Below are positions 17,633 through 57,314 of a stretch of DNA of 64,000 bases, piece after piece (within the stretch, counting starts at the first letter, position 1; each line of letters opens with the position of its first letter). A model generated the notes under the pieces. That model saw only the letters and a program-made list of their open reading frames with translations. It ran no database searches and was not told the origin of the DNA. The translations under genes and the position numbers were made by a program. Location: positions 1-64,000 of the forward strand of contig CAZYCQ010000006.1 of the NCBI GenBank assembly GCA_964645535.1, given 5' to 3'. Source of the DNA: an uncultured archaeon (GTDB taxonomy: Archaea > Asgardarchaeota > Heimdallarchaeia > Heimdallarchaeales > Kariarchaeaceae).

Positions 17633-17646
17633 CTATTGCTAGTTTT

Positions 17647-17871: not shown

Positions 17872-17891
17872 GTCTTTCACCTCAGTGTTGT

Positions 17892-17931
17892 TGTATATAC
17901 ATTAGTTGTATATACAATATTTGTATATACA
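17892..17931. promoter_or_regulatory. Triple palindromic operator (TGTATATACA x3), probable MarR binding site
   Basis: Perfect palindromes at 17892, 17907 and 17922 (15-bp period) directly upstream of the DUF2892-marR operon. Confidence 0.75.
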
Positions 17932-17984
17932 TTGATTGGTATAAGAATTTCGGTAGGGGCAAAAGGAATCGATTAAGGTTCATT

Positions 17985-21355: not shown

Positions 21356-22381
21356 CTAGGAATCTTGAATCTTCAGAAGTACCTTACCTCTGTTTTTTCT
21401 TGCATGAATATAGCGATGTGCATCAGCAGCATTTTCCAATGGAAAAATCCCTTCAGGATCGATTGTAGGACGAATATCTTGTTCCTCAACAAGTGCCACA
21501 AGTTTTTCCCATGGTTCCCTGATCCGTTCAGGGAATTTCCGCAGATATCCGACGTGGAGAGCCATGAACCCTTTGCTGTTTCTTAGCAAATCTTTGAAGG
21601 CTACCCTTGGAAGGGCACGCCAAGCTTTGAAGAGAGAGATGGGGTTGAGCTTATTCACCTGAATGCTTGTTCCTCCAATGGAAACCAATCTTCCCATAGG
21701 AGCCAAAATAGCCATGCTTTTTCTGAATACTTCACCACCCATTGTTTCTAAGATGATTTCAGGCTTTTCGTCCAGTTTCACATCAAAATTGGAATAGGAT
21801 AGTGGAATGGCACCGAGTTCTTCAATTAGTTTCATCTTATGAGGGCTTCCAGTTGTTGCATAGACTTTGAGACCAAGAGCCTTTCCTAGTTTGATTGCTG
21901 CTGTTCCTACTCCTCCTGCACCTGAATGAACCAATAAAACCTCACCGGCACGTACCCTTGCCATCTCTGTTAGGGAAAGCCAAGCTGTAAAGAAGGTTGC
22001 CACAAATGAAGCACTTTCTTTCAAATCATAGTTTGAGGGAGGAGAAAGGGCAAAATCTTCATGAACCGAAATATATTCCGCATAACCACCTGAATTCTTT
22101 CCGACAATGACTCGATCACCCACCTTGAATTTTGTAACTTGATTGCCTACTTTTTCCACAATTCCGGAGGCTTCAAGACCGAGAATATAAGGAAGCTTTG
22201 GCGCCCAAGAATATAATCCTTGACGAGACAATAGATCTGCATAGTTAACACCTGCATAATGTATCTTAACCAAAAGGTCATGAGAACCGATTGTTGGTGG
22301 ATCAACTTCCGAAACCTTCAGAATATCGGGTTTCCCGTATTTTTTCAATAGAATTGCCTTCATAAGGCTCCATAGACGCAT
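21356..22381 (-). CDS. Zinc-independent MDR family NAD(P)H:quinone oxidoreductase (VAT-1-like)
   Basis: GVNYAD, ILGLEASG, HSGAGGVG, RKNRGKVLL. Confidence 0.9.
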   Translation of the reverse strand: MRLWSLMKAILLKKYGKPDILKVSEVDPPTIGSHDLLVKIHYAGVNYADLLSRQGLYSWAPKLPYILGLEASGIVEKVGNQVTKFKVGDRVIVGKNSGGYAEYISVHEDFALSPPSNYDLKESASFVATFFTAWLSLTEMARVRAGEVLLVHSGAGGVGTAAIKLGKALGLKVYATTGSPHKMKLIEELGAIPLSYSNFDVKLDEKPEIILETMGGEVFRKSMAILAPMGRLVSIGGTSIQVNKLNPISLFKAWRALPRVAFKDLLRNSKGFMALHVGYLRKFPERIREPWEKLVALVEEQDIRPTIDPEGIFPLENAADAHRYIHARKNRGKVLLKIQDS

Positions 22382-22479
22382 GAATTATAGAGGTTTTTGA
22401 AGGGATTAGATTCTAAAAGTCAACATGTAGCAATAAATCGGAAGGAGAAATATTCAAAAGGTCAAGTCAACCTGTATCA

Positions 22480-23742
22480 TTGATGCATTCCATTTCAGAA
22501 AGGAATAATGCATATCTCAAATCATTGATTGTTCAAGGTTTATTGGTTCCGACTATCTTGATTTTTTTGGTGATTCTACTTACAGGCGGATTTCTCAATG
22601 ATTTTTTTATTGCATTCGGAGAAACCATTTATTATCCTGCATTAGGTTTGTTTGCCTCTTTATCGGTCTTTGGTATTCTTTTTTTGAGAACAAGGCACCT
22701 TAGATTCAGGACTAAGCTGAATCTATTGTTGATGGCTCTGTTTCTCGTTTTGTTTAATTTGGCAAATACATGGTTTTGGGGGATTTCAAGTTATAATCCG
22801 CCGTTTAAACGTCCTTTTGGGTATCCATTTCTTAATTTTGCAGATGGAATCCTAGTTGCAGTAGTAATAGTTCTTTTTTTCCATTTAAACAGCATGAGAA
22901 GATTTGACATCAATGTCCCATTTTCACTTTTCTTTGTCGGGATGGTAACACCGGCCCTATTAATTACTATTTTGGAAGGAATAAGTGGAAGAGAGACAGA
23001 ATACAATCAACTCAAGTTTGTTTCGGGTTATTTTCTTCCATTGATTGGAATAGCTGGATTTGGAGTAGCTATTTATGGGATCCGAATTGCTTATCTCATC
23101 TTACTTAACTCGTCTTTAGATGATGTTCGGAAAGGTTCGTATGGGTTTACCGCTTCATTTGTGTTTCTGAGCTATGCCTTAGCTTCACAAGTATTGTTTG
23201 TAGGAGATACGATCATGATTTTCAGATTTCGCCTGAGGATATTGCAATTGATACTCTTTGTTATTGGATCATCTTTTTTGATACTTGTTTATGCGAAATA
23301 CCCTATCTTTGCATATGCACTGCCGTATCGTATCTATGAATTGATCGTCTACAGTTCAGCAGGTTCACCGATTTGGTCTGTTTCTTTTATTTCACAAAGT
23401 GAAGACAAGAGGGAAGGACTAAAAGTTGGCGCATTGACTGCAATTGGGGAACTGATAAGGGACTTGTCCGGTTTCAGCGGAAAGCTTTCGGAAATACAGT
23501 TGGATGACGGAGTTCTCCTTCTTGAACAGGAAAAGAGATTTGCAGCATGCTTGATTGCAGAAGGAGTTTCATTTCAACTGTTCAGGATATTTCAAGAATT
23601 CTCTCAAGAAATTTTCAACCTGCTCCAAAATGAAGCTTCCTTGAAAAAAGGCCAAATTCCTGAACCTGCAAATAGTTTCTATCCCTTGATAGAAAAGTAT
23701 TTCCCAGTAAGATTTGAGGAATTCAAGATTTCAGAAGATTGA
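22480..23742 (+). CDS. Multi-pass membrane protein with C-terminal longin-like domain
   Basis: About 7-8 hydrophobic helices followed by LIVYSSAGSPIW...GALTAI.ELIRD...EIQLDDG.LLL longin-like pattern. Confidence 0.7.
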   Translation: MMHSISERNNAYLKSLIVQGLLVPTILIFLVILLTGGFLNDFFIAFGETIYYPALGLFASLSVFGILFLRTRHLRFRTKLNLLLMALFLVLFNLANTWFWGISSYNPPFKRPFGYPFLNFADGILVAVVIVLFFHLNSMRRFDINVPFSLFFVGMVTPALLITILEGISGRETEYNQLKFVSGYFLPLIGIAGFGVAIYGIRIAYLILLNSSLDDVRKGSYGFTASFVFLSYALASQVLFVGDTIMIFRFRLRILQLILFVIGSSFLILVYAKYPIFAYALPYRIYELIVYSSAGSPIWSVSFISQSEDKREGLKVGALTAIGELIRDLSGFSGKLSEIQLDDGVLLLEQEKRFAACLIAEGVSFQLFRIFQEFSQEIFNLLQNEASLKKGQIPEPANSFYPLIEKYFPVRFEEFKISED

Positions 23743-23797
23743 TCCGTTGGAAAAAACATTTATTTTTTCATGATAAAATATATTATTTGATGATATA

Positions 23798-24703
23798 ATG
23801 GAAATGATACTCCTCTTGTCTCTTATTTTTGGTTTATTCGTCTATTTAATCATTGCAGGTCTCCTGTTTCTGTTCTTCCACACAAATGTTTTCATTTGGC
23901 GGTCTAGAGATTACGAAATTCCATTCGGGAAAAGAGAAGGAAAGCAAATGAGAAAGGAGCTTCGAGATCCACGCGTTGTATATTGGGTCTGTGAAAATCA
24001 AATCCAAAGGAAACCTGAAGACTGGGTCATCTTATTGCATAGTTGGGGGAGAAATTCTGGAAGAATGATACAACGGGCAGAAATTTACTGGAAACTTGGA
24101 TTTTCATTGATTTTCATTGATGCCAGATGTCATGGTAAATCCTCTTGTACATGGCCTTCAAATGGATTTACATTCGGATATGATGCCATCCGTGTGGCGG
24201 ATGCTGAGGGGATAGAACAGCCAATCGTGCATGGACTTTCTGCTGGAGCTATTGCTGCGGTCTATTTTGCGAAAAACAGGCCTGTAGAAGCACTTGTACT
24301 TGAGGCATTGGTCAGCAATTACCGAAACATGGTCTTTGACACAATGAGTTTCTTTTTTCTTCCTAGGAAGCTATTTGCATGGATGGCGGAGTATCTCTTG
24401 ACACTGGATCTTCCTTTTGACGATTATGCTCCTGAAAAAGTCTTGCCACAACTTTCCTGCCCCATATTTCTCATTCATGGAGAGAAAGACAGATTTTTCC
24501 CTCCAGAAAACCACTATTTTAGAAATTTGGAGGCTTTGAAAGGAAAGGAAAATGTGTGGAATTGGTTAGTTCCAGGTTCAAAACATTCCAAAATGGCGCA
24601 ACACCCCGATTACCCAAAGAAGTTGAAGGTTTTTCTTTCAATGGTCTCAACTACAAAAGAGAAGGCGATTGAAGCAGTACCTAAAATGAAATTAATCGAT
24701 TAA
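23798..24703 (+). CDS. Membrane-anchored alpha/beta hydrolase
   Basis: N-terminal TM; LHSWG, GLSAG nucleophile elbow, IHGEKD, distal His. Confidence 0.88.
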   Translation: MEMILLLSLIFGLFVYLIIAGLLFLFFHTNVFIWRSRDYEIPFGKREGKQMRKELRDPRVVYWVCENQIQRKPEDWVILLHSWGRNSGRMIQRAEIYWKLGFSLIFIDARCHGKSSCTWPSNGFTFGYDAIRVADAEGIEQPIVHGLSAGAIAAVYFAKNRPVEALVLEALVSNYRNMVFDTMSFFFLPRKLFAWMAEYLLTLDLPFDDYAPEKVLPQLSCPIFLIHGEKDRFFPPENHYFRNLEALKGKENVWNWLVPGSKHSKMAQHPDYPKKLKVFLSMVSTTKEKAIEAVPKMKLID

Positions 24704-44120: not shown

Positions 44121-45839
44121 GTGATTGTGACTCAAAAGGGACTGGGAAAACACTTTGTCGTGTTGATTATTGTGATAGGTGCAGGATACTTCTTGGCGCC
44201 ACAGGAAATGGAAGAAGGAAAGTATTCCTCCTCATTTATCCTTGATGGAAAAAAAGTTCAGGACATCTCTTTCATGGTCAGCAGCTTGAAGAGCAGCAAA
44301 ACAACCACTGCACGGTTCAATATTTCATCAACGACATTTGAGATTACCTATCTGGAAACCTATGCTAACGACCTAGGATCAAAAATTTGGTTTTCGGTGA
44401 GGGTTTTTAGCTTAAACGCCGATATCAGCAAAGAATATCGTGAAAGACTAAACCTGAGGGTTGAAGGATCCAATGAATTTGCCATCACACTTGCACCAAA
44501 ATATACAGGCACAATTGATTTTAGTTTCCGAGTTCTTAGATATTCACAGATCATCCTGCCTCTTCTCATGGCAATTGCTTACCTATGGTTGACTGAACTC
44601 ATTCCCCTCTCTGCCGCATCCCTCATTGTGCCGGCAGTCATAATCATTTTCGACATTGATACATCAACATCAGCTCTATCTCCCTTTTTCTCGAAAATTA
44701 TTGTCCTCTTTTTTTCAGGGTTTCTCCTTGCTAAAGCAATGCAACGGGTAAAGCTAGATGAATATTTATCATTGCTCATCCTCTCCAAGATACCACCAAA
44801 CGGAAACATTTTACTGTTAATTCTCATGAGCTTGACTGCCTTTTTTTCAATGTTCATGAGCAATACCGCGGCTGCCGCTGTTCTTATCCCACTTTCGCAA
44901 TCACTATTGGGAAAAATCGATGAAGATCATGAGACCTTTCAAAAAGTGACAGTGCTAGGCATCGCCTACGCCGCAACCATGGGAGGCATTGGATCACTTA
45001 TTGGAACACCACCAAACCTGATGGCGGTAGAGTTTGTCTCTTCATATGAAGGTGTCGAAATCGGTTTTCTTGATTGGTTCTTTTTTGGATTGCCTGTCAT
45101 GATGGTTATGATACCTATAATCTATCTTTACCTCAGATGGAAGTACAAACCGACAATTTCACGAAATGCGTTGAAAGAAACAAAGAGAACCGCACTTCTC
45201 ACCTTAAAGGAACATCATAAATTTTCAAAAGATCAATGGATTGTGTCAATCGTGTTCATCGGAATTGTTGGGTTTTGGCTAACAGAGCAGTTCCATAACA
45301 TCCATGCAGGAATTATCGCCTTGATCGCGGCAATCGTCCTGTTTTTTGCAGGACAGATACAGGAAGAGGACGTCAATTCAATCAACTGGAATGTTCTTCT
45401 TACTTTTGGTGGAGGAATCTCTCTCGGCTCGATCGTTCTGAAATCAGGACTTGCAGAATGGTTTGCCTCATTGTTCATTTCACTTAAAGGAAGTCCAATA
45501 TGGTTGATCCTCCTCAGTCTCGGAATTTTCGCCCTAATTCTCACTGCTTTTGCTTCAAACACCGCTTCAGCAGCCATCCTTATTCCAATTGCAATGCCTA
45601 TTGGTAATCTCTTCGGATTGAACCCTGTAACCTTGGCAATCTATATTGCAATCGTCTGCTCTGTCGATTTCGCAATTGTCATAGGCACTCCAACAACCCT
45701 GCTTGCATATAGTACTGGAATGTTCAAGGTCAAGGAGATTTTTCAAATCGGCATCATATTGGATCTAATAGGCCTGATCCTAACTTGGACTATGGCCGCA
45801 TTGCTATTTGAACTGAGTTTCCAAATCCTCTTTCCATAG
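44121..45839 (+). CDS. SLC13/DASS family sodium:dicarboxylate or sulfate symporter with N-terminal extension
   Basis: Two SNT motifs (MSNTA, ASNTA), IGTPPN, about 13 TMs. Confidence 0.92.
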   Translation: MIVTQKGLGKHFVVLIIVIGAGYFLAPQEMEEGKYSSSFILDGKKVQDISFMVSSLKSSKTTTARFNISSTTFEITYLETYANDLGSKIWFSVRVFSLNADISKEYRERLNLRVEGSNEFAITLAPKYTGTIDFSFRVLRYSQIILPLLMAIAYLWLTELIPLSAASLIVPAVIIIFDIDTSTSALSPFFSKIIVLFFSGFLLAKAMQRVKLDEYLSLLILSKIPPNGNILLLILMSLTAFFSMFMSNTAAAAVLIPLSQSLLGKIDEDHETFQKVTVLGIAYAATMGGIGSLIGTPPNLMAVEFVSSYEGVEIGFLDWFFFGLPVMMVMIPIIYLYLRWKYKPTISRNALKETKRTALLTLKEHHKFSKDQWIVSIVFIGIVGFWLTEQFHNIHAGIIALIAAIVLFFAGQIQEEDVNSINWNVLLTFGGGISLGSIVLKSGLAEWFASLFISLKGSPIWLILLSLGIFALILTAFASNTASAAILIPIAMPIGNLFGLNPVTLAIYIAIVCSVDFAIVIGTPTTLLAYSTGMFKVKEIFQIGIILDLIGLILTWTMAALLFELSFQILFP

Positions 45840-45893
45840 TCATCATTGCAGCAGAAGAGCAAAAGACTATGTTTTATATTCAATGTCAGAACC

Positions 45894-47099
45894 ATGATTG
45901 TGAAAACCTTCCCCAAAATGGTCAAATGGGAAGAAGCTATGCAACTGATTTCCTCCCATATTCGACCAATTGCTGATGAAGAACCAATCTCCATCAATGA
46001 TGCATATGGACGAATAGCAAGCAGAAACGTCACTGCAACCCGACAGATCCCAGCATTCCCCATGTCCCTCGTCGACGGATTTGCAGTCGCAGATGACTCT
46101 GGAGAATGGACAATTGTAGGAGAAGTCAAGATCGGAAAACAGCACCAGATCAAACTCGAAGAAGGACAATGTGCACGAATCGCAACAGGTGGGATAGTAC
46201 CCGAAGGAACATACGCCATTCTCAAAATAGAGGACGTTCAATTGACACAAACAGAAACACAAGGAACTGTCATCTATTCAAAAGAAATCAAAAAAGGAAA
46301 TGAATTCGTCCCGGCAGGAAGTGACATTCCCTTGGGAAAAACCATACTCAAACACGGCCAACGAATTGGCTTCAAAGAAATCACAGTACTATCCGCCCAA
46401 GGACATCCCGCAGTCTTCGTCAAACGAAAACCAAGAATCTTCCTGATCATCACTGGTCATGAAATCAAACCCCCAGGAGTAGAGCTGCAACATGGTGAAA
46501 CATACGATTCCACATCGGCAATGCTACGGGCACTTGTCACACGCCTAGGAGCAGAAATTCTTGAAGTCATCTATGTGGGAGAAGACGTCGATTCAATCAG
46601 AGCCGCTCTAGGACAGTCAATGCCCATCGCAGACCTCATCATAACAACAGGAGGAACATCGGTAGGAAAGGCAGACAACGTCGCAAAAACAATCGAAATG
46701 CTCGGTCAAATCATCTTCCATGGAATGAACGTCCGACCAGGAAAACCAATGCTCTTCGGAATGATTGAAGGAACACCAATCCTAGGATTCCCGGGATTTG
46801 TAACCTCAAGCCTCGTCATGGCTCACCTTCTCCTCCCAAAAGTCATTGCAGACCTCTATGGAATCCCTCCCATCGAATTGAAACAAACTCAAGTCCAACT
46901 GGCAAATGATATCAAAGGATACCTAGGATGGAACCGTATCATCCCAGGAAAAATCATCCAAGGAAAATTCCACTCAACTTTCAAAACAAGCGCAGCACTA
47001 AGCAGCTTCGCAGAATCTCAAGGATATATCCACCTGAAACCGGACGAGGAGATCGCAAGAAAAGGAGAAACCAGACTGTTCACCCACTTCATCAAATGA
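45894..47099 (+). CDS. moeA: Molybdopterin molybdenumtransferase MoeA
   Basis: SLVDGFAV, IATGG.VP, TGHEI, TTGGTSVG, RPGKP, GFPG; ATG at 45894. Confidence 0.93.
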   Translation: MIVKTFPKMVKWEEAMQLISSHIRPIADEEPISINDAYGRIASRNVTATRQIPAFPMSLVDGFAVADDSGEWTIVGEVKIGKQHQIKLEEGQCARIATGGIVPEGTYAILKIEDVQLTQTETQGTVIYSKEIKKGNEFVPAGSDIPLGKTILKHGQRIGFKEITVLSAQGHPAVFVKRKPRIFLIITGHEIKPPGVELQHGETYDSTSAMLRALVTRLGAEILEVIYVGEDVDSIRAALGQSMPIADLIITTGGTSVGKADNVAKTIEMLGQIIFHGMNVRPGKPMLFGMIEGTPILGFPGFVTSSLVMAHLLLPKVIADLYGIPPIELKQTQVQLANDIKGYLGWNRIIPGKIIQGKFHSTFKTSAALSSFAESQGYIHLKPDEEIARKGETRLFTHFIK

Positions 47100-47196
47100 A
47101 GCAAAATTCATTGACTAATCAGATTCGATCTGAAATGCAGACCATCAGCTTTACACAATGATTGCAACCTATGCCAGATACTCCATTGTAGCATCA

Positions 47197-47439
47197 GTTT
47201 CAATCCCTAATGGGTCTTCACCCTCTCATAACAAGTCAACATAGGATTTTAAAAAATGTAGACCCATGGTTTCAATCCCTTAAGGGTTCTCATCTCTCGC
47301 GACCAAGATTGACATGCTGAAAAACCATGGAGAAGGGTTCAAACCCTCATATGTTTTCAGCAGTTACAACAAGTCAACATATAATTTAAAAAAATGTGGG
47401 GTCATGGTTTCAATCCCTTATGGGTTATCATCTCTTGAC
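47197..47439. CRISPR. Degenerate CRISPR-like mini-array (4 repeats, 3 spacers), no adjacent cas genes
   Basis: 33-36 nt repeats at 47197, 47269, 47336 and 47407 with consensus GTTTCAATCCCT-N2/3-GGGT..TCA.CTCT...(G/A)AC, an internal CCC/GGG hairpin, and 32-36 nt spacers; the minus strand ends in ATTGAAAC; repeat 3 is strongly diverged. Confidence 0.65.
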
Positions 47440-47461
47440 AAAGACTAATTTTATAACTTAA

Positions 47462-48073
47462 GTCATTCTACATAAAATTTACGAAAACAAATATGACTTT
47501 TGCATCGATTCAAAAGAATCACAGTTTTCAGAAGCTGTCCTCATAAAATTCAAAATCACATCCAGATCAAGTAACTCACGAATTATTGCTATATTCATAC
47601 CAAGAAGAAACATAAAAATAGATGGTAAAGCATACGAAGACATCGTAAAAATTCTTTCCGAGAAGGCAAGAGTTGAAATCAAAAACCCCGCATATAGATT
47701 GACCCCATTACTCGAAAATATGGAAGAAGATATACGGCAGCTGAAATTAAGGATACTTGCAACATTTTTCACCCCACCACAGACTTTCTTCGCACCATCT
47801 GGAAGAATAATCTCCCTGCCCGAATTTAGTGTCAGAAACGGAAGGGACGTCCATATACTCGACCTAGAACAGCCAAGCCAGGAATTGATCCATATATTGG
47901 ATGAAATCGAATTCCTCCAACCTGTACTCAAAAACTTGGATCGAACAATAAGGAATTGGGCATATCAAACTACAGATACAACGATTAAAAACCTCATCGA
48001 AAAACTTACCAAAAATAACCAACCGTCCAAATTTGTTGAGATGCTGATTCAATGGCTCCAAAGATTCCGATGA
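47462..48073 (+). CDS. Hypothetical protein; start uncertain
   Basis: Frame is open for 203 codons from 47462 but the first ATG/GTG/TTG is TTG at 47699. Confidence 0.5.
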   Translation, partial: VILHKIYENKYDFCIDSKESQFSEAVLIKFKITSRSSNSRIIAIFIPRRNIKIDGKAYEDIVKILSEKARVEIKNPAYRLTPLLENMEEDIRQLKLRILATFFTPPQTFFAPSGRIISLPEFSVRNGRDVHILDLEQPSQELIHILDEIEFLQPVLKNLDRTIRNWAYQTTDTTIKNLIEKLTKNNQPSKFVEMLIQWLQRFR

Positions 48074-48193
48074 GAACCTTCCGAAAATTATAATTACTTC
48101 AAAATACTACTTCAATTGTCTACGGACGGACATGGAATTTCAGTGCGAGATTCGAAACATGGTGCTGAAAAACCAATAGTAGATCCTTCTAAA

Positions 48194-48283
48194 GGGCGTG
48201 TAGCTCAGCTTGGTAGAGCAGCGGGCTTTTAGGGTGTATTCAAAGATACCCGAAGGTCGAGGGTTCAAATCCCTCCACGCTCA
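48194..48283 (+). tRNA. tRNA-Lys(UUU) with 16-nt intron at 37/38 (48232-48247)
   Basis: GGGCGTG/CACGCTC acceptor stem, D-arm GCTC..GAGC, anticodon TTT at 48228-48230, T-arm GAGGG-TTCAAAT-CCCTC; CTTT/AAAG central helix with 3-nt bulges (BHB-like). Confidence 0.93.
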
Positions 48284-48340
48284 TATTTTTTTTGTGTGTA
48301 TTTTGTGGAAGGATTTATTATTGTTTTTTTCATTTTTGTG
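48284..48340 (+). terminator. Oligo-T archaeal terminator after tRNA-Lys
   Basis: T8 run immediately after the discriminator base, followed by further T-tracts. Confidence 0.55.
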
Positions 48341-48344
48341 AACG

Positions 48345-48692
48345 ATGGAAGATCGTATTATTCGGGAGCAATTTGAGGAAGTTTTGGATTATTTTCATGG
48401 TAATCGTTTTCGTATTTTATCGGATCGAGATGTTGACGGTCATCGTACGGTTACGTTATCTAAGTACGGAGCAATATTGGTTTTGGTTTTGGAGGGTAAT
48501 GTGATAGCTTTTGACACGTATGCAGATTTGAAGGCAGGCATTTATGAGTTGGGTGAATTGAATACGTTGGTCAGTGTTATGCTTCAGGCGAAGCGTATGT
48601 GTTTGGATCGTGGTTTTCGTGAGATGAATACAACGGAGCGTCTTTATCCTAGGGATCGTCGTGGTTCAGAGACACGGACGTCAGGCTTGTAG
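48345..48692 (+). CDS. Hypothetical protein
   Basis: 115-aa ATG-started ORF with extreme G/T-ending codon bias. Confidence 0.55.
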   Translation: MEDRIIREQFEEVLDYFHGNRFRILSDRDVDGHRTVTLSKYGAILVLVLEGNVIAFDTYADLKAGIYELGELNTLVSVMLQAKRMCLDRGFREMNTTERLYPRDRRGSETRTSGL

Positions 48693-48715
48693 TTTTTTTT
48701 TGCTGTTGTTATTTT

Positions 48716-50023
48716 TTAGTATGCTTTGTATGGTATGAGGAATAGTTTGCTTTGGAAGATAAACCAGAATAGGAGTAGTTGGAACATTAGAGTGATGAAG
48801 AGTGATGATGCGAAAGCTATTGGATATCTTGATTGATTTTTCTTGACGAGTTTTGAGTATCCTATACCTACGAGGAATACATAGATGAAGAACATTAGGA
48901 ATATTGGCAGAGCGACGAGGAATAGGAATGGGAGTGTATCTTTTTCTTCGATGGACAGTTCTTCACTGGATGGGTGGAATCCTACAAGTTCTTGGTAGAA
49001 AATTCCTGCGAATAGTTGTGCGAATGCTAGTACGAATATGGCAATTCCTGCGAGGAGTATAGCGCTATTCATGAAATTTTTGGAGAAATTTCCGGTGACG
49101 AGTCCGATGACCAAAGGTTGGAGGATGATATATGATAGTAGTACACCGAATATCATGAGGTAGAAGCTGATCCAGAATTGTAAAAATCCAGCATTTGCTT
49201 CATTTGCTCGTATTGAGTTGATGCTGAATGTATTAAAGCTAAGGAAATAGAAGAGTCCTTTTCCATTTACGACGATTGATGTGAAGAATGAGGAGCTGAT
49301 GAATGCGAGAAATAGGAACCACCACGGGAGTATTTCAGCGTATGCACCTCTTGTAGGTCGTGTAATGAATTCAGGGATGAACTTGAGCATACTTTTGACT
49401 TCTTCTGATTTTGACACGAGGAATGAGGTAATAAATCCGGGCACCAGAAGGAAGATTGCATAACTTGCGAGGGTGATGGCGAACTGTGTTGGGCTGATGC
49501 TCAGAGCCACAAGGAGGTTATTGGTGATTGAAATAGCTGGGCTGTTGTTGAGGAAGAACATGGGGAACCAGAATGCGGAGAAGACGATTGCAAGAAGTGC
49601 CAAGGTTGTCATGATGAGTTTTGGTTTTTGGGGGACGTTATTGTACCATAGTTTTTCTTCGACGACCTCATCAACGATTGGTTCGAAGTCGTCGAGGATT
49701 CTTCCATCGATTTGGAGATCTTGGTATTTTTCCCTGAATCTGGAGATGAATTCATTGAGGAGTTCTTGTGCATCTCCTTCGTCCATTCGTTTATCAAGTG
49801 TGAGGACGAACAGGAGGTCGGCCTGTCTTTCCTTGAAGATGGTTCGGACGTTTTGGAGGTCGAGGTTTTCGATTTTTTCTCCTTCGGTTTCGGCGGTCAT
49901 GCTGTAGACTGCGCTGATAAGTCCAGCGGTCAAAGATACATCAGTCTCGATTTCTTTTTGGCTGAATTGTTTGGAGAAGTATATTTGTCCATAGGTTGTC
50001 ATGACAAGCAGTGTCTTGATCAT
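48716..50023 (-). CDS. N-terminal longin-like domain fused to a multi-pass membrane domain
   Basis: MIKTLLVMTTYGQIYFSKQF...SLTAGLISAV...LLFVLTLD followed by about 7 TMs; ATG at 50023 preceded by AGGT. Confidence 0.75.
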   Translation of the reverse strand: MIKTLLVMTTYGQIYFSKQFSQKEIETDVSLTAGLISAVYSMTAETEGEKIENLDLQNVRTIFKERQADLLFVLTLDKRMDEGDAQELLNEFISRFREKYQDLQIDGRILDDFEPIVDEVVEEKLWYNNVPQKPKLIMTTLALLAIVFSAFWFPMFFLNNSPAISITNNLLVALSISPTQFAITLASYAIFLLVPGFITSFLVSKSEEVKSMLKFIPEFITRPTRGAYAEILPWWFLFLAFISSSFFTSIVVNGKGLFYFLSFNTFSINSIRANEANAGFLQFWISFYLMIFGVLLSYIILQPLVIGLVTGNFSKNFMNSAILLAGIAIFVLAFAQLFAGIFYQELVGFHPSSEELSIEEKDTLPFLFLVALPIFLMFFIYVFLVGIGYSKLVKKNQSRYPIAFASSLFITLMFQLLLFWFIFQSKLFLIPYKAY

Positions 50024-50277
50024 TGTCTCGTACCTAAAGAGACGGCTTTCACATATAAATGGAACGGATTCCTGATTGGAATTTGCAAGAGAATGGAGGT
50101 GGAGAAATGTGCAAGATACACCGAAGGGGTTTAAATACCGAATCAAGGTTTAATAATTTCCAAGATCGGTGATGCATTTCGGAATTTTTTTCATAAACCA
50201 TAATTGTTATAAATATATCCTCGATAATTGGTTTATTTCTTGGAAAAATTGATGAATTTTTCCGAGAGGTGAGATAT

Positions 50278-51681
50278 ATGAAAGGTAAAGGAATAAATGC
50301 AATCCTTCTGAGTCTGGTTTTCCTCATGTCCTTCATGTTGGTTGGGCAGATCAATGGAAATACCAACGTTCAAATGATCATTCCTGACGTAACGACTGAT
50401 GAATATGCAGTTGAATTTTTCACGGAATTTGATGCAGGGACAGGGAGCGGAACGCTTCCGACATTGGAGCCCTTTTGGACTGACATAGTGAATACCGAAA
50501 GAGTGGAAGAAACCGGGGAAGATGTCTATGTTGCGGTATTGGATACCGGCTTGTTGCCACAGTGGGACTTTTTCTTTTCTGAAGCGAATATTGCAGCGGA
50601 TTTGGGAGTTGGGTTCACGCATGACATTTTCTTTGATTCCAGCGGCAATTTGGTGGTTGGTCCATTGAAACAGGTTGGTTTTGTTACAGAATTGGCGAGT
50701 GGTCATGGGACTCATGTGACAAGTACAATTGTTGGGTTCAACCTGAACAACCAGGTGTGGGTTGATGGGATTGCCCCAGAAGCGACAATCATTCCAGTGA
50801 GAGTTCTGGATGCTTGGGATCTCGGTGGCGGGTTGAGGCTGAGTGGTGGATTCAATGACATGATTGCAGCAGGGATCATGTACGTTGCCGATCTAGCGGA
50901 TGAATTGGATGGCAAGATCATAATAAACATGTCTCTTGGTGGACCAAATCCTTCGCAATTGATTGAAGACGCCATCAACTATGCGATAAGCAAAGGAGTG
51001 ATCGTTGTGGCCTCAGCCGGCAACAGCGGGTTCAATGGGATGGGATATCCCGGGGCATTTTCCCAGGTGATTTCGGTGGGTGCTGGAGGCTGGACAGACA
51101 TGTTCACGAATTGGTGGGACACAGGAGCTCCAGAACAGCTGAACGTACCTGATTCTTTGGGCAATGAGATGCAACTGTACCTTGAGGATTTCAGTTCTCG
51201 TCCGAATCCTCTGTTGGGGCAAACCACAGATCTTCTTGATGTGACCGCTCCCGGTGCTTGGGTGGTTGGTCCATTCAAGAGTTCATTCAGGGAGAACACA
51301 GGATATTATTTTCTTTCAGGGACAAGCATGGCGGCTCCCCACATTAGTGGGATTGCGGCCTTGGTAGCGGAGGAGGAAGAAGATGTCACACAGGCACAGA
51401 TGGAAATTCTGCTCAAAATTGCGGCTAGTGGGGAAGATTTCAATGCTTTCAGAGGCTTCCCGTTTATCGGCAATGATGTCAAGGTTGCGTTTCCCTTTAT
51501 TCCGGGAGGATTCTACACTGTATCTTGGGGATTAGGGGAATTCGGGACAGGCTTTATAGATGCGGAAGTTGTCATGGAATTGGCGCATGAACTTGATGAT
51601 GATGATGATGGATTCAATGACCTGATTGCAGATCTATTGGAAAAGTTGGAGGATTTTTACGAGGATCTCTTTGAAGATTGA
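50278..51681 (+). CDS. Secreted S8 subtilisin-like serine protease with acidic tail
   Basis: Signal peptide; VAVLDTG, GHGTHV, SAGN, SGTSMAAPH; GAGGTG Shine-Dalgarno before the ATG at 50278. Confidence 0.93.
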   Translation: MKGKGINAILLSLVFLMSFMLVGQINGNTNVQMIIPDVTTDEYAVEFFTEFDAGTGSGTLPTLEPFWTDIVNTERVEETGEDVYVAVLDTGLLPQWDFFFSEANIAADLGVGFTHDIFFDSSGNLVVGPLKQVGFVTELASGHGTHVTSTIVGFNLNNQVWVDGIAPEATIIPVRVLDAWDLGGGLRLSGGFNDMIAAGIMYVADLADELDGKIIINMSLGGPNPSQLIEDAINYAISKGVIVVASAGNSGFNGMGYPGAFSQVISVGAGGWTDMFTNWWDTGAPEQLNVPDSLGNEMQLYLEDFSSRPNPLLGQTTDLLDVTAPGAWVVGPFKSSFRENTGYYFLSGTSMAAPHISGIAALVAEEEEDVTQAQMEILLKIAASGEDFNAFRGFPFIGNDVKVAFPFIPGGFYTVSWGLGEFGTGFIDAEVVMELAHELDDDDDGFNDLIADLLEKLEDFYEDLFED

Positions 51682-51695
51682 AGTAAACGTAAGAT

Positions 51696-51785
51696 GTAGA
51701 TGAATCATATTTTTATATTAAACGTAGATGAATTATATTTCAAACGGATTTACGTGTAGATGAATTACGTCTGTTTGTAGATGAA
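51696..51785. repeat. Four direct copies of GTAGATGAA between convergent genes
   Basis: Copies at 51696, 51724, 51756 and 51777; the last lies inside the 3' end of the EF-2 gene. Confidence 0.7.
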
Positions 51786-54008
51786 CCGTGCCCAAGTGTC
51801 GATTGTTGGAACTTCTTCTTTGAGACCGTTTCTCTTTCTGATGAAGGCGATTTTCTCGTCTCGCAGATGGGGTGGAACTTCCTCGAAGTGGCTGAACTGA
51901 TATCCAAAGAAACCTCGTCCTGCGGTGGCACCACGGATTTCATCAGCCAGTCCCACAGTCTCGGATGTTGGGATGAGACCCTTGATCATGTTGGAACCGC
52001 CTGCTTCCTTGATTTCTTGGATGATCCCTCTGTGCTGTGTCAGAAGGCTGGTAATGGCGCCGACATATTCAGGGGGTGCCTTGATATCGATGGTAAGCAT
52101 GGGTTCGAGCAATTTGGGACCTGCTGTGAGGTAACAGAGGTTACATGCAGCGGACACCATTGCCATGATTTCGGTCAATCCCGTGTGAGCCGGATCTGTG
52201 TGGACGGTTGCATCGGTCATGACGAAGAGAACGCCCATCAGGGGTTCTCCAGCAAGGGTTGCTTTTCTTGTGAATTGCTTCCAGGTGTTGATGACGAATT
52301 CCTTGATTCTTTCAAGTCTTTGAACACCTTTGGTGGATTCAATGAAGAGATTGGTGTCGGAAGATGCCCAGAATCCTCTGAAGAATTTTTCGTCGAATTC
52401 GGGATATTTTTCGGTGTCCATATGTTGTGCCAAGAGTTTGGCTCTTTCCTTGGTATCCATCATGGTAAGATCCTTTCCTTCCTTGAGGAAGTCGATCATG
52501 GACTGTGGCAGGGGATAGAGCTTCATCTGGATTCTGTTGTGTCCATTGGGTGACTTGGTGGTGAATACCTCGGATTCTTTTGAGATGGTTTCCCTGTGGA
52601 CAATGACTGGATCAGAAACTTCGATCGGAACCTGTTCATTGATACGGGTGATAAGGATCTCGATTTGGAGGGGATCAATTCCTTGGAGGGTATATTTCTT
52701 GGTTTCGGGATCCATTTCATAGGAGGCAGTTGGGTCTGCCATGATCCAAGTACTGATGACCTTGCCCAATTTAGCGACATCGGTCTGTTTCTTGGGGAAG
52801 ATAGACCTTGAAACAACAGGTTCGGCGGCATATGAAATGGCTTCGAATCCGGGAATGTTTGTTCCCTCTCTTGTGAAGGATTCACCGGCGGGACAAATGA
52901 AGCCGTCTGCTGCGAAGAGGTTTCCGGCAGGGATCTTTGGAACGGGAAGGATGTCATCAAGTTCCATGACACCAAGTCTTGTGATGTTTGCCTTTTGTCG
53001 TCCGTTGATGAGATAGATCTTGTCGGTATCCTTGAGTGTTCCTGAGAATACACGTCCGATGAGCGTTGGTCTCTTGGTTCTTGGATGGATGAAGATCTTG
53101 GTGATCATTCCAAGGAGTGGTCCATTGGGATCACAATTCAACAGTGCCTGACCGGCTTCGGATTCAAGGTCACCGGGCCAGATTTTGGGGATCTTGATTT
53201 TTTGGGATTCGCGGGGGTTGGGTAGGTGTTGGATAACCATTCTGAGAAGGGCGTCATCCAACGGAAGGTTTTTCCTCAACCAAGCCTTGTCATCCTCAGC
53301 ATACTTCTGGAAAACTGACTGTGGAGTAAGCTTCTTTTCCTTGAGGATCTCAACAGTGAATGCCCATCCGTCTTTTGCGGAGCCTACAGCAACGGAGTTG
53401 TCTTGGAAGGAGACCCTCCAGCTCTTCTTGAATTCTTTTGGAACGATTGCCTTAATCTTGTTGTTGACTTGTGAGACGATGATGTCCAATCTAGAGAATA
53501 CATCCTTGGGATCAAGCTTCAGTTCAGAGATCAATCGGTCTACCTTGTTGATGAAAAGGACTGGTTTACAGAATTCTTCACCGACAGCCAGTTGGATGTT
53601 TGTTTCAGTCTGTGTCATCATTCCTTCAAGGGCGTCTACAAGGATAATTGCACCATCCGAACCACGGAGGGCTCTTGAGACTTCACCCGTGAAGGAAAGG
53701 TGACCGGGAGTGTCGTTGATTTGGAAGATGTAGTCATTGACCGTTCCGTCTTCTTCTGTGTATTGGTAAGAAAGGATGACAACAGTTGTGAAAATAGTAA
53801 TTCCTCTTTCCTGTTCTTCCTCGTCTAGGTCAGTCATCCTTTTGTCTCCAGCAGTTTCAGCAGACATGAGACCAGCCTTTGCCAGAAGGTAGTCTGCGGT
53901 GGTGGACTTCCCATGATCGATATGAGCTGCAATAGAGAAGATTCTGCGCAGCTCGATGGGATGATTCATGATCATGTTCCTGATTTCTTCGGTGTTCTTT
54001 ACTTTCAT
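51765..54008 (-). CDS. Elongation factor 2, divergent paralog (aEF-2p-like)
   Basis: AHIDHGKS, ERGITI, DTPGH, NKVD; domain IV loop HTDPAHTG instead of the canonical HxDxxHRG. Confidence 0.9.
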   Translation of the reverse strand: MKVKNTEEIRNMIMNHPIELRRIFSIAAHIDHGKSTTADYLLAKAGLMSAETAGDKRMTDLDEEEQERGITIFTTVVILSYQYTEEDGTVNDYIFQINDTPGHLSFTGEVSRALRGSDGAIILVDALEGMMTQTETNIQLAVGEEFCKPVLFINKVDRLISELKLDPKDVFSRLDIIVSQVNNKIKAIVPKEFKKSWRVSFQDNSVAVGSAKDGWAFTVEILKEKKLTPQSVFQKYAEDDKAWLRKNLPLDDALLRMVIQHLPNPRESQKIKIPKIWPGDLESEAGQALLNCDPNGPLLGMITKIFIHPRTKRPTLIGRVFSGTLKDTDKIYLINGRQKANITRLGVMELDDILPVPKIPAGNLFAADGFICPAGESFTREGTNIPGFEAISYAAEPVVSRSIFPKKQTDVAKLGKVISTWIMADPTASYEMDPETKKYTLQGIDPLQIEILITRINEQVPIEVSDPVIVHRETISKESEVFTTKSPNGHNRIQMKLYPLPQSMIDFLKEGKDLTMMDTKERAKLLAQHMDTEKYPEFDEKFFRGFWASSDTNLFIESTKGVQRLERIKEFVINTWKQFTRKATLAGEPLMGVLFVMTDATVHTDPAHTGLTEIMAMVSAACNLCYLTAGPKLLEPMLTIDIKAPPEYVGAITSLLTQHRGIIQEIKEAGGSNMIKGLIPTSETVGLADEIRGATAGRGFFGYQFSHFEEVPPHLRDEKIAFIRKRNGLKEEVPTIDTWARFIYKQT

Positions 54009-54108
54009 AGTGAAATCCCAACTTTGATGTTTTTGGCTTTAGCCTAACTTAACTCCAATACCCATTCAGTCTTTAAAATATCATAGATATTGACACCCAG
54101 TATATTAT

Positions 54109-54801
54109 TTAGATCAATGATTTAAGGAATGCTATGATCTGTTTCTTTCCAATTTTTGAGGTGCCGTATTCTCTATTTCGGAAGACATAACCGAACTCAC
54201 AGATTTTTCCATCCTTAGGGAAGACCTTCAGCACATCAAAAAGGAATTTGTATCCCGTAAATTCGAGGATTTTGTCATTTTCGGCATATTTTGTGAGAAC
54301 ACTGGTTTTACCTCCGAAGAATCCTGACATGATATCCTTTGGGATTTGCTTTCTTCTGAGTAATAGGGAGATTTTGCCAAGTGTCTGAGCCCCTACAGAA
54401 ATCAATTTTCTTGTAAAGGGCCATTCCTCGATATGATCTCGTCTGCCGATAATAAGATCCGGATCTTGATCCATGCATGCAATGGCATCCTGAATGGATT
54501 CAGGGGGGTGTTGAAAATCTCCATCCATTATGATGAACCACTCGGTTTCGGTATGAAGTATGCCATCCCTTATTGAAATTGTCAATCCCTTTACGGGTTC
54601 TGATTGTCTATCAAGTAATCTGACATTTGGATATTTTTTTGATTTTTCTCGAACGATATCCGTTGTCTTGTCCGTTGAGCCATCATCCACCACGACAATG
54701 TGTATCCCGGGATAGAGTTCTTGGATTTTGTCTATTAAGCGACCGATATTTTGTTCCTCATTTAGGGTCGGGACGATTACCGTAATGTTGGAAAATTCCA
54801 C
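54109..54801 (-). CDS. GT2 glycosyltransferase, DPM1-like polyprenol-phosphate mannose synthase
   Basis: VPTLNE, VDDGSTD, MDGDFQHPP, D.MSGFF, R.YGTSK. Confidence 0.9.
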   Translation of the reverse strand: MEFSNITVIVPTLNEEQNIGRLIDKIQELYPGIHIVVVDDGSTDKTTDIVREKSKKYPNVRLLDRQSEPVKGLTISIRDGILHTETEWFIIMDGDFQHPPESIQDAIACMDQDPDLIIGRRDHIEEWPFTRKLISVGAQTLGKISLLLRRKQIPKDIMSGFFGGKTSVLTKYAENDKILEFTGYKFLFDVLKVFPKDGKICEFGYVFRNREYGTSKIGKKQIIAFLKSLI

Positions 54802-54984
54802 AAGGCATCATTTTTTCGAGTTTTCTAAGACTTTTGGTCAAGTTCGCACCATCAAAGCATTAAATCATAGACGAGTTCACAATTTTGTCATGATTTGTGA
54901 TGATTTGTCAATCAAAGATGCAGGGGCGGATGAATGGACTCTAAATTGAATAGGTTTATATCTTGATCTGTTCAAAAGGTTACC

Positions 54985-56115
54985 ATGAGTATACTTTTTT
55001 GGGCATTCATCATTTCGCATGGGTTGAATGTCATTGGTTCGATCCTGATTATGATTCCGTTAATCCGTCTTTATTACCGAACAGGAATTTCTCTTGTAAA
55101 TATCATGATCATGTTGTTTGGGGTATGGGGCATAACCAACTTGCTTCTTATCATCCCAAATGTTCTTGAAATTCAGATTTTACCAATAGCACTGGCAAAT
55201 ATTATCGGTTCGGCATTTGCACCTGCGTTATTCCTTTTGTTTGCGGATAGGTTCGAAGGGAGAGTTTCCCCTCTCAAAACATCGGTAGCCGTCTCAATGA
55301 TTCTTTTATCCATTTTCGTGGTTATTGTGAGCTTATGGACAGGAATACTTGACATTGCAACAGTTGTGCTCATTATTGAATCGGAATCCTTGATCACCAT
55401 GAGATGGGCAGAGATACCATCTCTTTTTCTTTTTCCGGGAATTCTTCTTACTGGATATTGGGTCAGGCAGGAGTTGAAGAGCACAGGTGAGCATGCGATT
55501 GATGAAAGGCAGATTGAACAGATTAAGTGGATGCAACGGGGGAATTCGTTGACATTCTTCATTGGACCGATTTTTGGTGCTATTGGAGTGATACTGGTTT
55601 CTTTGGACAATCCGATGGCAGGAACTTGGGCATCGGAAATAATCGGATACCTGATTGTTTCGGCCGGTGTATTCATCTTTGGGATTAACTATCTGCTATC
55701 ACCGGAAGTGGCATTCCTTCAACCTCAACGGGTGGATACCTTATTGGTTCTTCATGAGACAGGTGTTCCGGTGCTCCGGTATGATTTTCGACCACCAGAG
55801 ATTGAAGCAGATACAGCATTGGTCAGTGGAGCCATTACCGCCATTACTGCAATTATGAATGAGGCGTTCGGAGTGAAATCCATGGTCAGGTCAATTCATT
55901 TTGAAGACAAAGAGTTGATGCTCCAATTTGCAGATGGTCTTGCTTTTGTGCTTATTGCAGACAGAACTTCGATTTTCCTTGAAAGCTCTCTGAAAAGGTT
56001 GAAAGAAGAGTTTGAATTAAATTTCATTGAGAAATATGATTTTGGAGGTGGGGAAATTCTGGATCAGGCAATATTTTTGCCTGCGATCCTCAAAAGTTTC
56101 GGACTGAAAAGTTGA
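54985..56115 (+). CDS. Seven-TM membrane protein with C-terminal longin-like domain
   Basis: About 7 TMs then LLVLHETGVPVLRYDF...LVSGAITAI...SIHFEDKELML...FVLIAD. Confidence 0.75.
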   Translation: MSILFWAFIISHGLNVIGSILIMIPLIRLYYRTGISLVNIMIMLFGVWGITNLLLIIPNVLEIQILPIALANIIGSAFAPALFLLFADRFEGRVSPLKTSVAVSMILLSIFVVIVSLWTGILDIATVVLIIESESLITMRWAEIPSLFLFPGILLTGYWVRQELKSTGEHAIDERQIEQIKWMQRGNSLTFFIGPIFGAIGVILVSLDNPMAGTWASEIIGYLIVSAGVFIFGINYLLSPEVAFLQPQRVDTLLVLHETGVPVLRYDFRPPEIEADTALVSGAITAITAIMNEAFGVKSMVRSIHFEDKELMLQFADGLAFVLIADRTSIFLESSLKRLKEEFELNFIEKYDFGGGEILDQAIFLPAILKSFGLKS

Positions 56116-57314
56116 TTCCCGAAAAATTATTCAGAAATCCATTCATGACAGATAGGAGTAAAAACCAAGGGATTTTGATTGGGGACATGGAAGTTTTGAG
56201 CGAGAATGAGCTTCGGTTATATTGTCCATTGAAGTGGCATGAAGGGATTCCTGAAGGCGGAATAGGATTAGGTATTGCAGACATTGATTTCAAGGGACCA
56301 GAAGGGATAGTTGAATGGATTTCCTCAAGATTGACGGAAGAATATCATTTCTATCAGAAACGGGAGGGGTTGGATTTTGCCATTGAGGCAGTGAAAGAAT
56401 TTTTGAAGAGGAAGGAAATGGCGAATGCAACGATCCAATTGATACCGGGTACAATGGCAGGAATTTATGCAAGCATGAAATTTGCGTCTTCAATGGAAGG
56501 AGAGGTAGCAATTGTCAATCCAATCTATCCACCAGTGCATTTCCACGCCTCATCGGAAAAAAACAGGATCGCGTGGGTAGGTCTTGATGACCAATATCGA
56601 TTGGATCATGACAGCCTTCAGGAAACAGTGTCAACTGATACAAAACTGCTTGGGATTGTTCATCCAAACAATCCAACAGGAACAGTTTTCACAGACGAAG
56701 ATTTTCGATTGATCCGGGATTTGGCAGTTGATTATGACTTTATCTGTTTCTCTGATGAGCTGTATGACCCATTGGCATTTAATGGGGCAAAAAAAAGCCT
56801 TGGCTCATTTGAAGGGATGGAAAACAGAACAATCACACTCTTCGGTTTTTCCAAGGCCTATGGACTTGCAGGATTGAGAGCAGGATTTATGGCAATTCAG
56901 CTTCAGGATTCAACAAAGATCCAGGAAATTGTGGAGCACCTATTGGTTTCTCCATCTCCTGTAACATCGATAGTGACAGAGTATGCATTGAAAGAAGAGA
57001 AAGTTTTGAAATGGGTGAAAGATTTCAGGGAGACCATGAGAGTGAATATGGAATTTGCAAGCAAGGTGTTTGATGATGAAGGTTATAGCTGTCCAAAACC
57101 AGATGGCGGGTTGTTTGTCTTTCCAGATATAGGAAAGAAAGATGATGTCAGGTTCTGTGATCAGCTTCTTCGGGAAAAAGGGGTTGAAGTGGTGCCTGGT
57201 TCAAAATTCGGTCCAGATGGAATTGGTCACATCAGGGTGAATTGTGCTACATCGATGGAAAGATTGGAAGATGGAATCGGAAGAATTATCGAATTTTTGT
57301 CTTATGATAAGTAG
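56112..57314 (+). CDS. PLP-dependent class I/II aminotransferase (MalY/PatB-like)
   Basis: IADIDF, HPNNPTG, SDELY, FSKAYGLAGLR. Confidence 0.9.
   Translation: MIPEKLFRNPFMTDRSKNQGILIGDMEVLSENELRLYCPLKWHEGIPEGGIGLGIADIDFKGPEGIVEWISSRLTEEYHFYQKREGLDFAIEAVKEFLKRKEMANATIQLIPGTMAGIYASMKFASSMEGEVAIVNPIYPPVHFHASSEKNRIAWVGLDDQYRLDHDSLQETVSTDTKLLGIVHPNNPTGTVFTDEDFRLIRDLAVDYDFICFSDELYDPLAFNGAKKSLGSFEGMENRTITLFGFSKAYGLAGLRAGFMAIQLQDSTKIQEIVEHLLVSPSPVTSIVTEYALKEEKVLKWVKDFRETMRVNMEFASKVFDDEGYSCPKPDGGLFVFPDIGKKDDVRFCDQLLREKGVEVVPGSKFGPDGIGHIRVNCATSMERLEDGIGRIIEFLSYDK

Follow-up and report, generated by a model that had tools for sequence, protein, structure and literature searches.

The described systems that come closest to the case reported here are the skew jumps at replication origins (oriC of bacteria and archaea, and the 'N-domains' of the human genome), the asymmetry between the heavy (H) and light strands of vertebrate mitochondrial DNA (mtDNA), the constitutive stable DNA replication (cSDR) from oriK sites of Escherichia coli together with the R-loops at yeast tRNA genes, and the transcription-associated mutagenesis (TAM) of eukaryotic tRNA loci. 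The case itself is an abrupt switch in strand composition centred on a gene for tRNA-Lys in an uncultured archaeon of the family Kariarchaeaceae (Asgardarchaeota, Heimdallarchaeia). The stretch analysed, referred to as the window, covers the initial 64 kb of a contig of 101.6 kb (GenBank CAZYCQ010000006.1, here C6) of a metagenome-assembled genome (MAG) of 3.62 Mb in 176 contigs and with 89% completeness (GCA_964645535.1, here G000). An earlier reading of the window, the original prediction, had proposed the switch to be a strong local site of replication initiation. Our analyses confirm that the switch is real, but it is one of many in this genome; the effect is anchored at tRNA genes, and its signature is distinct from that of the replichores.

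With the skew jumps at origins, the switch shares an abrupt upward step of the GC skew that is independent of gene orientation and, with the human upward jumps in particular, an outgoing strand rich in both G and T. Here, however, more than 30 such sites are found per 3.6 Mb, all at tRNA genes, and the asymmetry decays within ~5 kb and does not extend through a replichore or domain; its amplitude is several-fold above the replichore value, it combines G with T in a genome whose own asymmetry combines G with A, no orc1/cdc6 gene lies nearby, and no sequence like an origin recognition box (ORB) was found there. Vertebrate mtDNA offers a parallel in the C→T and A→G changes on the presumably exposed strand, with an unchanged GC content and a gradient with distance, whereas the present asymmetry is chromosomal, multi-site, bidirectional and short-range, and it occurs in an archaeon; strand-displacement replication is, to our knowledge, not known in archaea. 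cSDR and the R-loops of yeast tRNA genes are similar in that they would let bidirectional events emanate from highly transcribed RNA genes, and RNase HI is undetected in the genus of the archaeon. However, cSDR forks travel far and rRNA operons are prime sites of cSDR, whereas here the 23S rRNA gene is without effect, as is the whole genome of a congener (G003) that also lacks RNase HI. Finally, TAM at eukaryotic tRNA loci reaches ~10–40 bp into the flanks and follows transcription (Thornlow et al. 2018, PMC6130373). The tRNA anchor, flanks more mutated than the background and transitions of the deamination type are common to both cases, but the asymmetry described here extends over 1–5 kb, is mirror-symmetric, is stronger upstream and leaves other highly transcribed RNA genes unaffected. 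In open-access papers and bioRxiv, we did not encounter any description of a kilobase-scale skew anchored at tRNA genes.

A composition switch centred on tRNA-Lys

Steps in composition were measured as D, the step in keto index (right 1500 bp minus left 1500 bp), which has a standard deviation (SD) of 0.067 over 62,312 positions of the genome. For individual genes we used keto4, the G+T−A−C index at fourfold degenerate sites, read on the + strand unless marked as coding; GC-skew4 and AT-skew4 refer to the same sites. Across tRNA-Lys, D amounts to 0.37–0.39, with the maximum at 48200, on the tRNA gene itself, and the switch at ~48.2 kb is present both in 400-bp windows and at fourfold sites. 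In the former, read on the + strand, GC skew is −0.08 to −0.24 and AT skew +0.08 to +0.28 on the left (46.6–48.2 kb), as against +0.37 to +0.43 and −0.13 to −0.24, respectively, on the right (48.2–49.0 kb). The skew fades by ~44 kb leftward and by ~57 kb rightward, and is local and not replichore-wide, as the original prediction had stated. Its base counts (A26 C15 G10 T9 at 46201–46260, A14 C6 G19 T21 at 48481–48540) proved exact, as did its codon preferences in moeA (GGA 32/39, ATC 31/48, GTC 18/27) and in the open reading frame (ORF) that begins at 48345 (CGT 10/14, GTT 6/8, TTG 10/14).

The fourfold-site bias tracks the + strand in genes of either orientation around tRNA-Lys. It is thus tied to the DNA strand and not to gene direction, so that neither the transcription of the genes present there nor their codon usage can account for it, which bears out another claim of the original prediction. 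In moeA, the native gene left of the tRNA, the sites are recoded toward A/C-ending codons (GC-skew4 −0.58, AT-skew4 +0.67); an ORF at 47699, still closer to the tRNA, has a keto4 of −0.42, and genes left of 44.1 kb range from −0.05 to +0.24. In the right flank, keto4 takes the values +0.52, +0.58, +0.14, +0.30, +0.38, +0.12 and −0.07 in the order of the genes, the last of which has a GC-skew4 of +0.44. A misassembly at the tRNA, named in the original prediction as something that would undo it, can be dismissed: a Logan contig from an independent assembly (2,543 nt, corresponding to 47565–50107) bridges tRNA-Lys with 0 differences and the depth is ~12 on either side, and the junction is therefore not chimeric.

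The same switch at tRNA genes throughout the genome

The whole 3.6-Mb genome contains only 14 steps with |D|>0.35, the one at tRNA-Lys among them. All 14 go from A/C-rich to G/T-rich (0 reversed) and all 14 sit on tRNA genes, seven on the + strand and seven on the − strand. D is positive at 34 of the 36 tRNA genes that have both flanks, and exceeds 2 SD at 27 of them. In a meta-profile of the tRNA genes, GC skew changes from −0.175 to +0.154 and AT skew from +0.18 to −0.18, with a flip located within 50 bp of the tRNA gene and a decay over ~5 kb. Negative controls are provided by two ARAGORN calls whose anticodons are impossible and which do not appear in the Rfam list: neither has a step. With the threshold lowered, tRNA genes coincide with 21 of 29 positive steps and with 0 of 13 negative ones, several of which (C18:44400, C29:1500 and 4700, C7:21800) mark the outer edges of islands formed by tRNA flanks. 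Viewed in the opposite direction, a detected tRNA gene is present within 3 kb in 66% of those 1-kb windows that have the strongest skew, against a baseline of 6%. No effect is seen at other genes for stable RNAs (D 0.00 at the signal recognition particle (SRP) RNA gene, −0.06 at the RNase P RNA gene and +0.04 for the upstream flank of the 23S rRNA gene), so that it is specific to tRNA genes.

Two further observations concern skew away from detected tRNA genes. Of the 58 most skewed 1-kb windows, 17 have no such gene near them and are found no more than 6 kb away from the end of a contig, which suggests that breaks in assemblies are favoured at tRNA genes, close to them or within the skewed flanks. 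Eight weaker positive steps (D 0.22–0.31) are located off any detected tRNA gene (C7:66350, C42:11300, C36:17900, C79:7650, C14:14150, C52:20900, C97:2750 and C84:6600), and a search of these eight against Rfam at E≤0.1 returned no match; they may represent tRNA genes that are split or have escaped detection, or else different triggers of this process.

Signature of the footprint

In what follows, the away strand is the strand that runs 5'→3' outward from the tRNA gene. Genes within 3 kb of a tRNA gene have their fourfold sites shifted by ~+0.17 when running away from it and by ~−0.15 when running toward it, gene direction relative to the tRNA being the sole determinant. The fourfold sites of the away strand are composed of A.257, C.147, G.254 and T.343 as compared with a symmetric.306/.194, i.e. 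C is changed by −0.047, T by +0.037, A by −0.049 and G by +0.060. Purine content is unchanged (skew −0.02) and GC content nearly so (0.403 vs 0.413). The footprint is a pure keto skew of the transition type, in which either the away strand underwent C→T and A→G or the opposite one underwent the complementary changes. It resembles that of the mitochondrial H strand in all these respects, with C→T/A→G on one strand, a gradient from the start site and a near-constant GC content; indeed, the skew falls monotonically with distance from the tRNA gene over ~1–5 kb. The upstream side of the tRNA gene is affected ~1.6 times more than the downstream side (0.218 vs 0.134 in the first 500 bp). The loss of C has no marked trinucleotide context and carries no signature of the TC or WRC type, a test that is weak on a composition at equilibrium.

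The tRNA-Lys site is not the chromosomal origin

A chromosome would be expected to have one to a few origins, whereas the same jump is found at 34 of 36 tRNA genes. Moreover, the replichore asymmetry keeps its sign across 48 kb, the fourfold-site skew r being ~+0.1 on both sides over the 101-kb contig, and the local shift at these sites (~0.45–0.64) is 4–6 times the replichore value of ~0.11 and is gone within ~5 kb. Away from tRNA genes, the long-range asymmetry of this genome is such that the strand rich in G is rich in A as well (r = +0.82, slope +1.17 in 47 blocks of 40 kb at fourfold sites; mean |rGC| 0.10, mean |rAT| 0.15); classical bacterial strand asymmetry pairs G with T. The tRNA flanks couple G with T and are thus opposite in the sign of the AT component to the long-range coupling of G with A. 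Ordinary forks starting from a tRNA gene would yield G+A, and the G+T flanks therefore mark a different process; likewise, a decay within ~5 kb is not expected of productive forks. The polarity that the original prediction took for that of an origin hence stands for the GC component, whereas the AT component is the opposite of what an origin would produce in this genome. The site is not the chromosomal origin, and the idea of a strong initiation site is not supported, so that the original prediction holds in part; the accompanying suggestion of non-canonical events primed by tRNA transcription or R-loops is one of the live explanations.

The original prediction was right in finding no orc1/cdc6 gene around the switch, and it saw no ORB elements there either. 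Matches to orc1/cdc6 (TIGR02928) are present at C50:17091–18176, C50:8176–9267 and C12:37993–39078, but none on the 101.6-kb C6, and no ORB-like core was found in 47.1–48.35 kb with the motif used, from which the ORB of the host lineage may differ. The repeats in this interval comprise only four CRISPR-type units and one weak inverted repeat (71%). The canonical origin could not be placed on C50 or C12, contigs that are too short and give a mixed signal. C50 (23.9 kb) carries two orc1/cdc6 genes (8176–9267 on the + strand, 17091–18176 on the − strand), the SRP RNA gene (12765–13080), a tRNA-Arg(CCU) gene without a step and the 5' part of a 23S rRNA gene (22284–23802) with no 16S rRNA gene before it, and is a candidate for the neighbourhood of the true origin. 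No 16S or 5S rRNA gene was found in the G000 assembly.

Orthologues of the skewed genes

For comparison we used three genomes of the same genus (G001, G002 and G003), one of the same family (G004) and two of the same order (G006 and G008). A search for relatives based on MoeA found none, and translation elongation factor 2 (aEF-2) was used instead; its matches (93% amino acid identity to WAKA01000232 of G002, 83% to JASBSB01 BWSM_123 of G003) also support the placement of the organism among Heimdallarchaeota (Asgard). The runs that contain DNA of the window are hot-spring metagenomes.

The genes next to tRNA-Lys differ markedly from their orthologues. ORF115, immediately right of the tRNA, has a keto4 of +0.52 here, as compared with −0.02, −0.04 and +0.20 in G002, G001 and G003, respectively (amino acid identities of 77%, 66% and 49%). 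The coding keto4 of the next gene, ORF476, is −0.58, but −0.13 in G002 and +0.08 in G001, where its homologues (58–61% identity) are not beside the tRNA gene. GC-skew4 of aEF-2 is −0.68, against −0.35, −0.34, −0.18 and −0.38 in four relatives, and coding keto4 of the glycosyltransferase gene (GT2) is −0.36 to −0.38, against −0.15 in G002 and −0.14 in G003; the moeA homologue of G003 (42% identity) has a keto4 of −0.09. As the orthologues in sister species are without the skew, the native genes gained it in place, and the gain is recent, postdating the divergence of the sister species.

The locus has been rearranged within the genus. In G003 the moeA homologue adjoins ORF115 with no tRNA gene between them, and in G002 the ORF115–ORF476 block is inverted (48345–51681 vs L116 9118–10817). 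The subtilase gene has no match in L116 or L117, is not at this locus in G002 and, among the congeners, occurs at this locus only here; it is probably a more recent arrival and would for that reason be less skewed than its neighbours.

Occurrence of the effect among relatives

The effect is strong in three species of the genus, absent in the fourth and patchy over the class. Mean D is 0.26 in G000; in G001 it is 0.20 (n=5) and in G002 0.19 (n=14, D being positive in every case), as opposed to −0.006 in G003 (n=15; 10 contigs). Outside the genus, it is 0.011 in G004, 0.039 in G006 and 0.024 in G008. In a class-wide survey that sampled one tRNA gene per genome, we found no effect in family f5, a weak one, positive in 10 of 11 cases, in f2, values of 0.11–0.19 in G007 and values up to 0.25 in f6. 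Polarity is identical wherever the effect occurs and only the intensity differs. Heat as the sole cause was considered and rejected, because by the proxies of thermophily used (tRNA GC content and IVYWREL) G006 and G008 are at least as thermophilic as G000 and yet lack the effect. Among candidate factors, RNase HI is absent in G000–G003, uracil-DNA glycosylase (UDG) is present in G000–G002 and G004 and was not found in G003, and EndoV is absent in all five.

Possible explanations of the footprint

We estimate a probability of roughly 0.55 that the jump at 48.2 kb is one case of a genome-wide, tRNA-anchored mutational footprint left by a local DNA transaction directed outward. Such a transaction would begin recurrently at the tRNA gene and run outward on both sides, at a level of activity specific to the lineage. 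The away strand might thereby be left single-stranded and suffer deamination of C to U and of A to hypoxanthine, as on the mitochondrial H strand, or it might be resynthesised repeatedly with polymerase errors of the G·T type. A candidate trigger would be a strand-displacement tract, primed by the tRNA or an R-loop or by a nick, that aborts after a few kilobases. Outward strand displacement or primed synthesis, outward transcription and resynthesis with G·T errors all give the right sign. The parsimony spectrum of aEF-2 has an excess of T>C on the coding strand that fits the footprint, although ~79% nucleotide identity is too divergent for a clean spectrum. Our confidence is moderate for this class of explanation and low for any specific trigger. 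More tentatively, the tRNA genes of some heimdallarchaeial lineages may be dispersed starts for an additional DNA transaction that is non-replisomal, such as strand-displacement synthesis primed by tRNA/R-loops or by nicks, which would run ~1–5 kb outward in both directions and be frequent enough to dominate the local mutation spectrum and recode the neighbouring genes.

Several points weigh against the favoured explanation. It does not account for the six real tRNA genes with both flanks that have D<0.1 (Leu-GAG, Arg-CCU, Arg-UCG, Arg-CCG, Gly-CCC and Ala-UGC), nor for the fact that tRNA genes are affected and other stable-RNA genes are not. The spectrum of aEF-2 is weak and G>A is not elevated in it. 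No gene tracking the effect was found among RNase HI, UDG and EndoV in MAGs that are 82–93% complete. All evidence on the process, be it DNA synthesis, nicks, R-loops or single-stranded DNA, is equilibrium base composition. Finally, the orthologous tRNA-Lys of G002, a comparison of the kind that the original prediction had called for, shows no step (D +0.02); the gene is flanked there by different DNA, with orphan ORFs on one side and a gene for a 1,211-aa Ig-domain protein on the other, and we infer that this flanking DNA, probably placed recently, is the reason.

The account that otherwise deserves most attention, though we regard it as unlikely, is TAM, in which read-through transcription downstream and divergent antisense transcription upstream of the tRNA gene would expose the non-template, outward-running strand to deamination. 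It predicts the right polarity on both sides and a decay with distance like that of stochastic termination, and the effect indeed depends on the orientation of the tRNA gene and not on fork direction; moreover, tRNA loci are hotspots of TAM in eukaryotes, but on a scale of ~10–40 bp and without mirror symmetry (PMC6130373). That the upstream side exceeds the read-through side does not fit this account, nor does the lack of effect at the SRP RNA, RNase P RNA and 23S rRNA genes, and step size is not correlated with codon demand (rho 0.16, p 0.35), which is only a proxy of expression. Genes in the flanks have no preferred away orientation (124 run toward tRNA genes and 100 away), although kilobase-long antisense transcription should be costly to them, and the highly expressed aEF-2 gene has no gain of G/T on its coding strand in G002, a genome with the tRNA effect. 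Still less probable is the original prediction extended to the whole genome, in which all tRNA genes would act as true bidirectional origins of a non-canonical kind (R-loop-primed, for instance, like those of cSDR) and the skew would represent the ordinary asymmetry of leading and lagging strands. The upward, symmetric and orientation-independent jump and the apparent lack of RNase HI in the genus would agree with this, but G003 is without RNase HI as well and shows no effect, three orc1/cdc6 genes lie elsewhere, and the decay over ~5 kb, a shift 4–6 times the replichore value, the absence of a switch at 48 kb and the coupling of G with T instead of A all speak against it.

We consider scars of break and repair to be about as improbable, i.e. 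recurrent double-strand breaks or cuts by a recombinase or homing nuclease at tRNA genes, followed by resection and resynthesis of the flanks. tRNA genes are hotspots of integration, the length of the tracts matches that of resection, and the observed sign would result if the outward-running strand, once resected, were resynthesised with G·T-type errors; however, 5'→3' resection exposes the strand that runs toward the break, so that deamination predicts the opposite sign, tens of tRNA genes of unrelated sequence, with and without introns, are affected, the 3' end of the tRNA occurs only once in the window, and the adjacent ORFs have no match to integrase, nuclease or viral families. tRNA genes act as fork barriers in yeast, and stalled forks with degradation of the nascent leading strand would expose the leading-strand template with the right polarity on the approach side. 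This reading is very doubtful, for both sides are affected at single tRNA genes, approach and exit sides do not differ (0.151 vs 0.138, p 0.73), and the stronger side is always the one upstream of the tRNA gene, whether the latter is co-directional or head-on. A foreign island integrated at the tRNA gene, or an assembly chimera, hardly comes into consideration. The position next to a tRNA gene, the atypical codon usage and the several hypothetical genes would suit an island, but both flanks are hit as mirror images, and the skewed genes, including those for aEF-2 and MoeA, are native; their unskewed orthologues in sister species and the bridging contig with 0 differences and equal depth refute both variants for the tRNA-Lys locus. 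An integrated island was also rejected on the grounds that the tRNA 3' end is not repeated elsewhere in the 64 kb as an att site and that no integrase or viral family is found nearby.

Genes and other features around tRNA-Lys

The features of the locus are listed in table 1. The tRNA gene is easily overlooked: ARAGORN missed it (48194–48283) in its default mode and miscalled it as 'Stop(tta)' in the intron mode, and the Rfam alignment settled the anticodon as UUU. A 28-nt stretch ~100 bp upstream (48070–48097) is 100% identical to C101:1040–1067, which is situated ~100 bp upstream of the other tRNA-Lys gene (C101:868–941, − strand); the stretch shared by both genes may be a promoter or regulatory element. 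Also upstream, 47197–47430 is occupied by four degenerate 24-nt repeat units spaced 67–72 bp apart, with two near-duplicate 68-nt blocks of repeat plus spacer. The repeat is matched many times on C58 (18968–20021) and once on C98, and the four units have the appearance of a short CRISPR array, orphan and decaying, immediately before tRNA-Lys.

ORF115 had no match to a Pfam or PHROG family. Residues 42–155 of ORF476 have a sub-threshold match to PF01217 (clathrin-adaptor small chain, longin-like; E 0.002, 18.5 bits against a cut-off of 22.5), and this protein could be of the Asgard 'eukaryotic signature' type.

Table 1. Features of the tRNA-Lys locus; keto4 is given on the + strand.
Feature	Position	Strand	Evidence and composition
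Left flank of tRNA-Lys	44121–48193		+ strand A/C-rich (− strand, the away strand, G/T-rich); strong from 45.8 kb, weak at 44.1–45.8 kb, none left of 44.1 kb
Na+/sulfate-citrate symporter family transporter	44121–45839	+	Pfam Na_sulph_symp, CitMHS; keto4 −0.28; outer, weaker part of the left footprint
moeA (molybdopterin molybdenumtransferase)	45846–47099	+	Pfam MoeA_N, MoCF_biosynth, MoeA_C; keto4 −0.64
tRNA-Lys(UUU)	48194–48283	+	Rfam RF00005, 59.7 bits; loop C-U-UUU-A plus a 17-nt insert (17-nt intron at position 37/38); pivot of the switch
Right flank of tRNA-Lys	48284–57314		+ strand G/T-rich whatever the gene orientation; peak at 48.3–50.1 kb, weaker to ~57 kb
ORF115, conserved hypothetical	48345–48692	+	keto4 +0.52; recoded toward G/T-ending codons
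ORF476, conserved hypothetical	48716–50146	−	coding strand A/C-rich (+ strand G/T-rich); keto4 +0.58
Subtilase (peptidase S8)	50269–51681	+	Pfam Peptidase_S8; keto4 +0.14, between +0.58 and +0.30
aEF-2 (translation elongation factor 2)	51765–54008	−	Pfam GTP_EFTU, EFG_III, EFG_IV, EFG_C; keto4 +0.30; core gene in the outer footprint
GT2, family-2 glycosyltransferase	54109–54801	−	Pfam Glycos_transf_2; keto4 +0.38; outer footprint

Significance of the tRNA-anchored footprint

Skew is the standard means of finding origins from sequence alone, and in this genome it yields dozens of false 'origins', one per tRNA gene; skew-based calls of origins in Asgard MAGs thus need a caveat concerning tRNA footprints. 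The footprint is strong, anchored to sites and specific to lineages, and it rewrites synonymous and in part also amino-acid-changing sites of native genes within a few kilobases of a tRNA gene. It can thereby mimic horizontal transfer in detectors of islands based on codon usage. The congeners with and without the effect provide a comparative handle for the responsible factor.

If synthesis or unwinding of DNA does start at tRNA genes, this would be relevant to the way in which Asgard archaea begin or resume DNA synthesis, and also to the old association of eukaryotic tRNA genes (tDNA) with fork pausing, origins and genome instability. It would then amount to a previously unknown link between tDNA and the start of DNA synthesis in those archaea that are most closely related to eukaryotes, legible from sequence alone.

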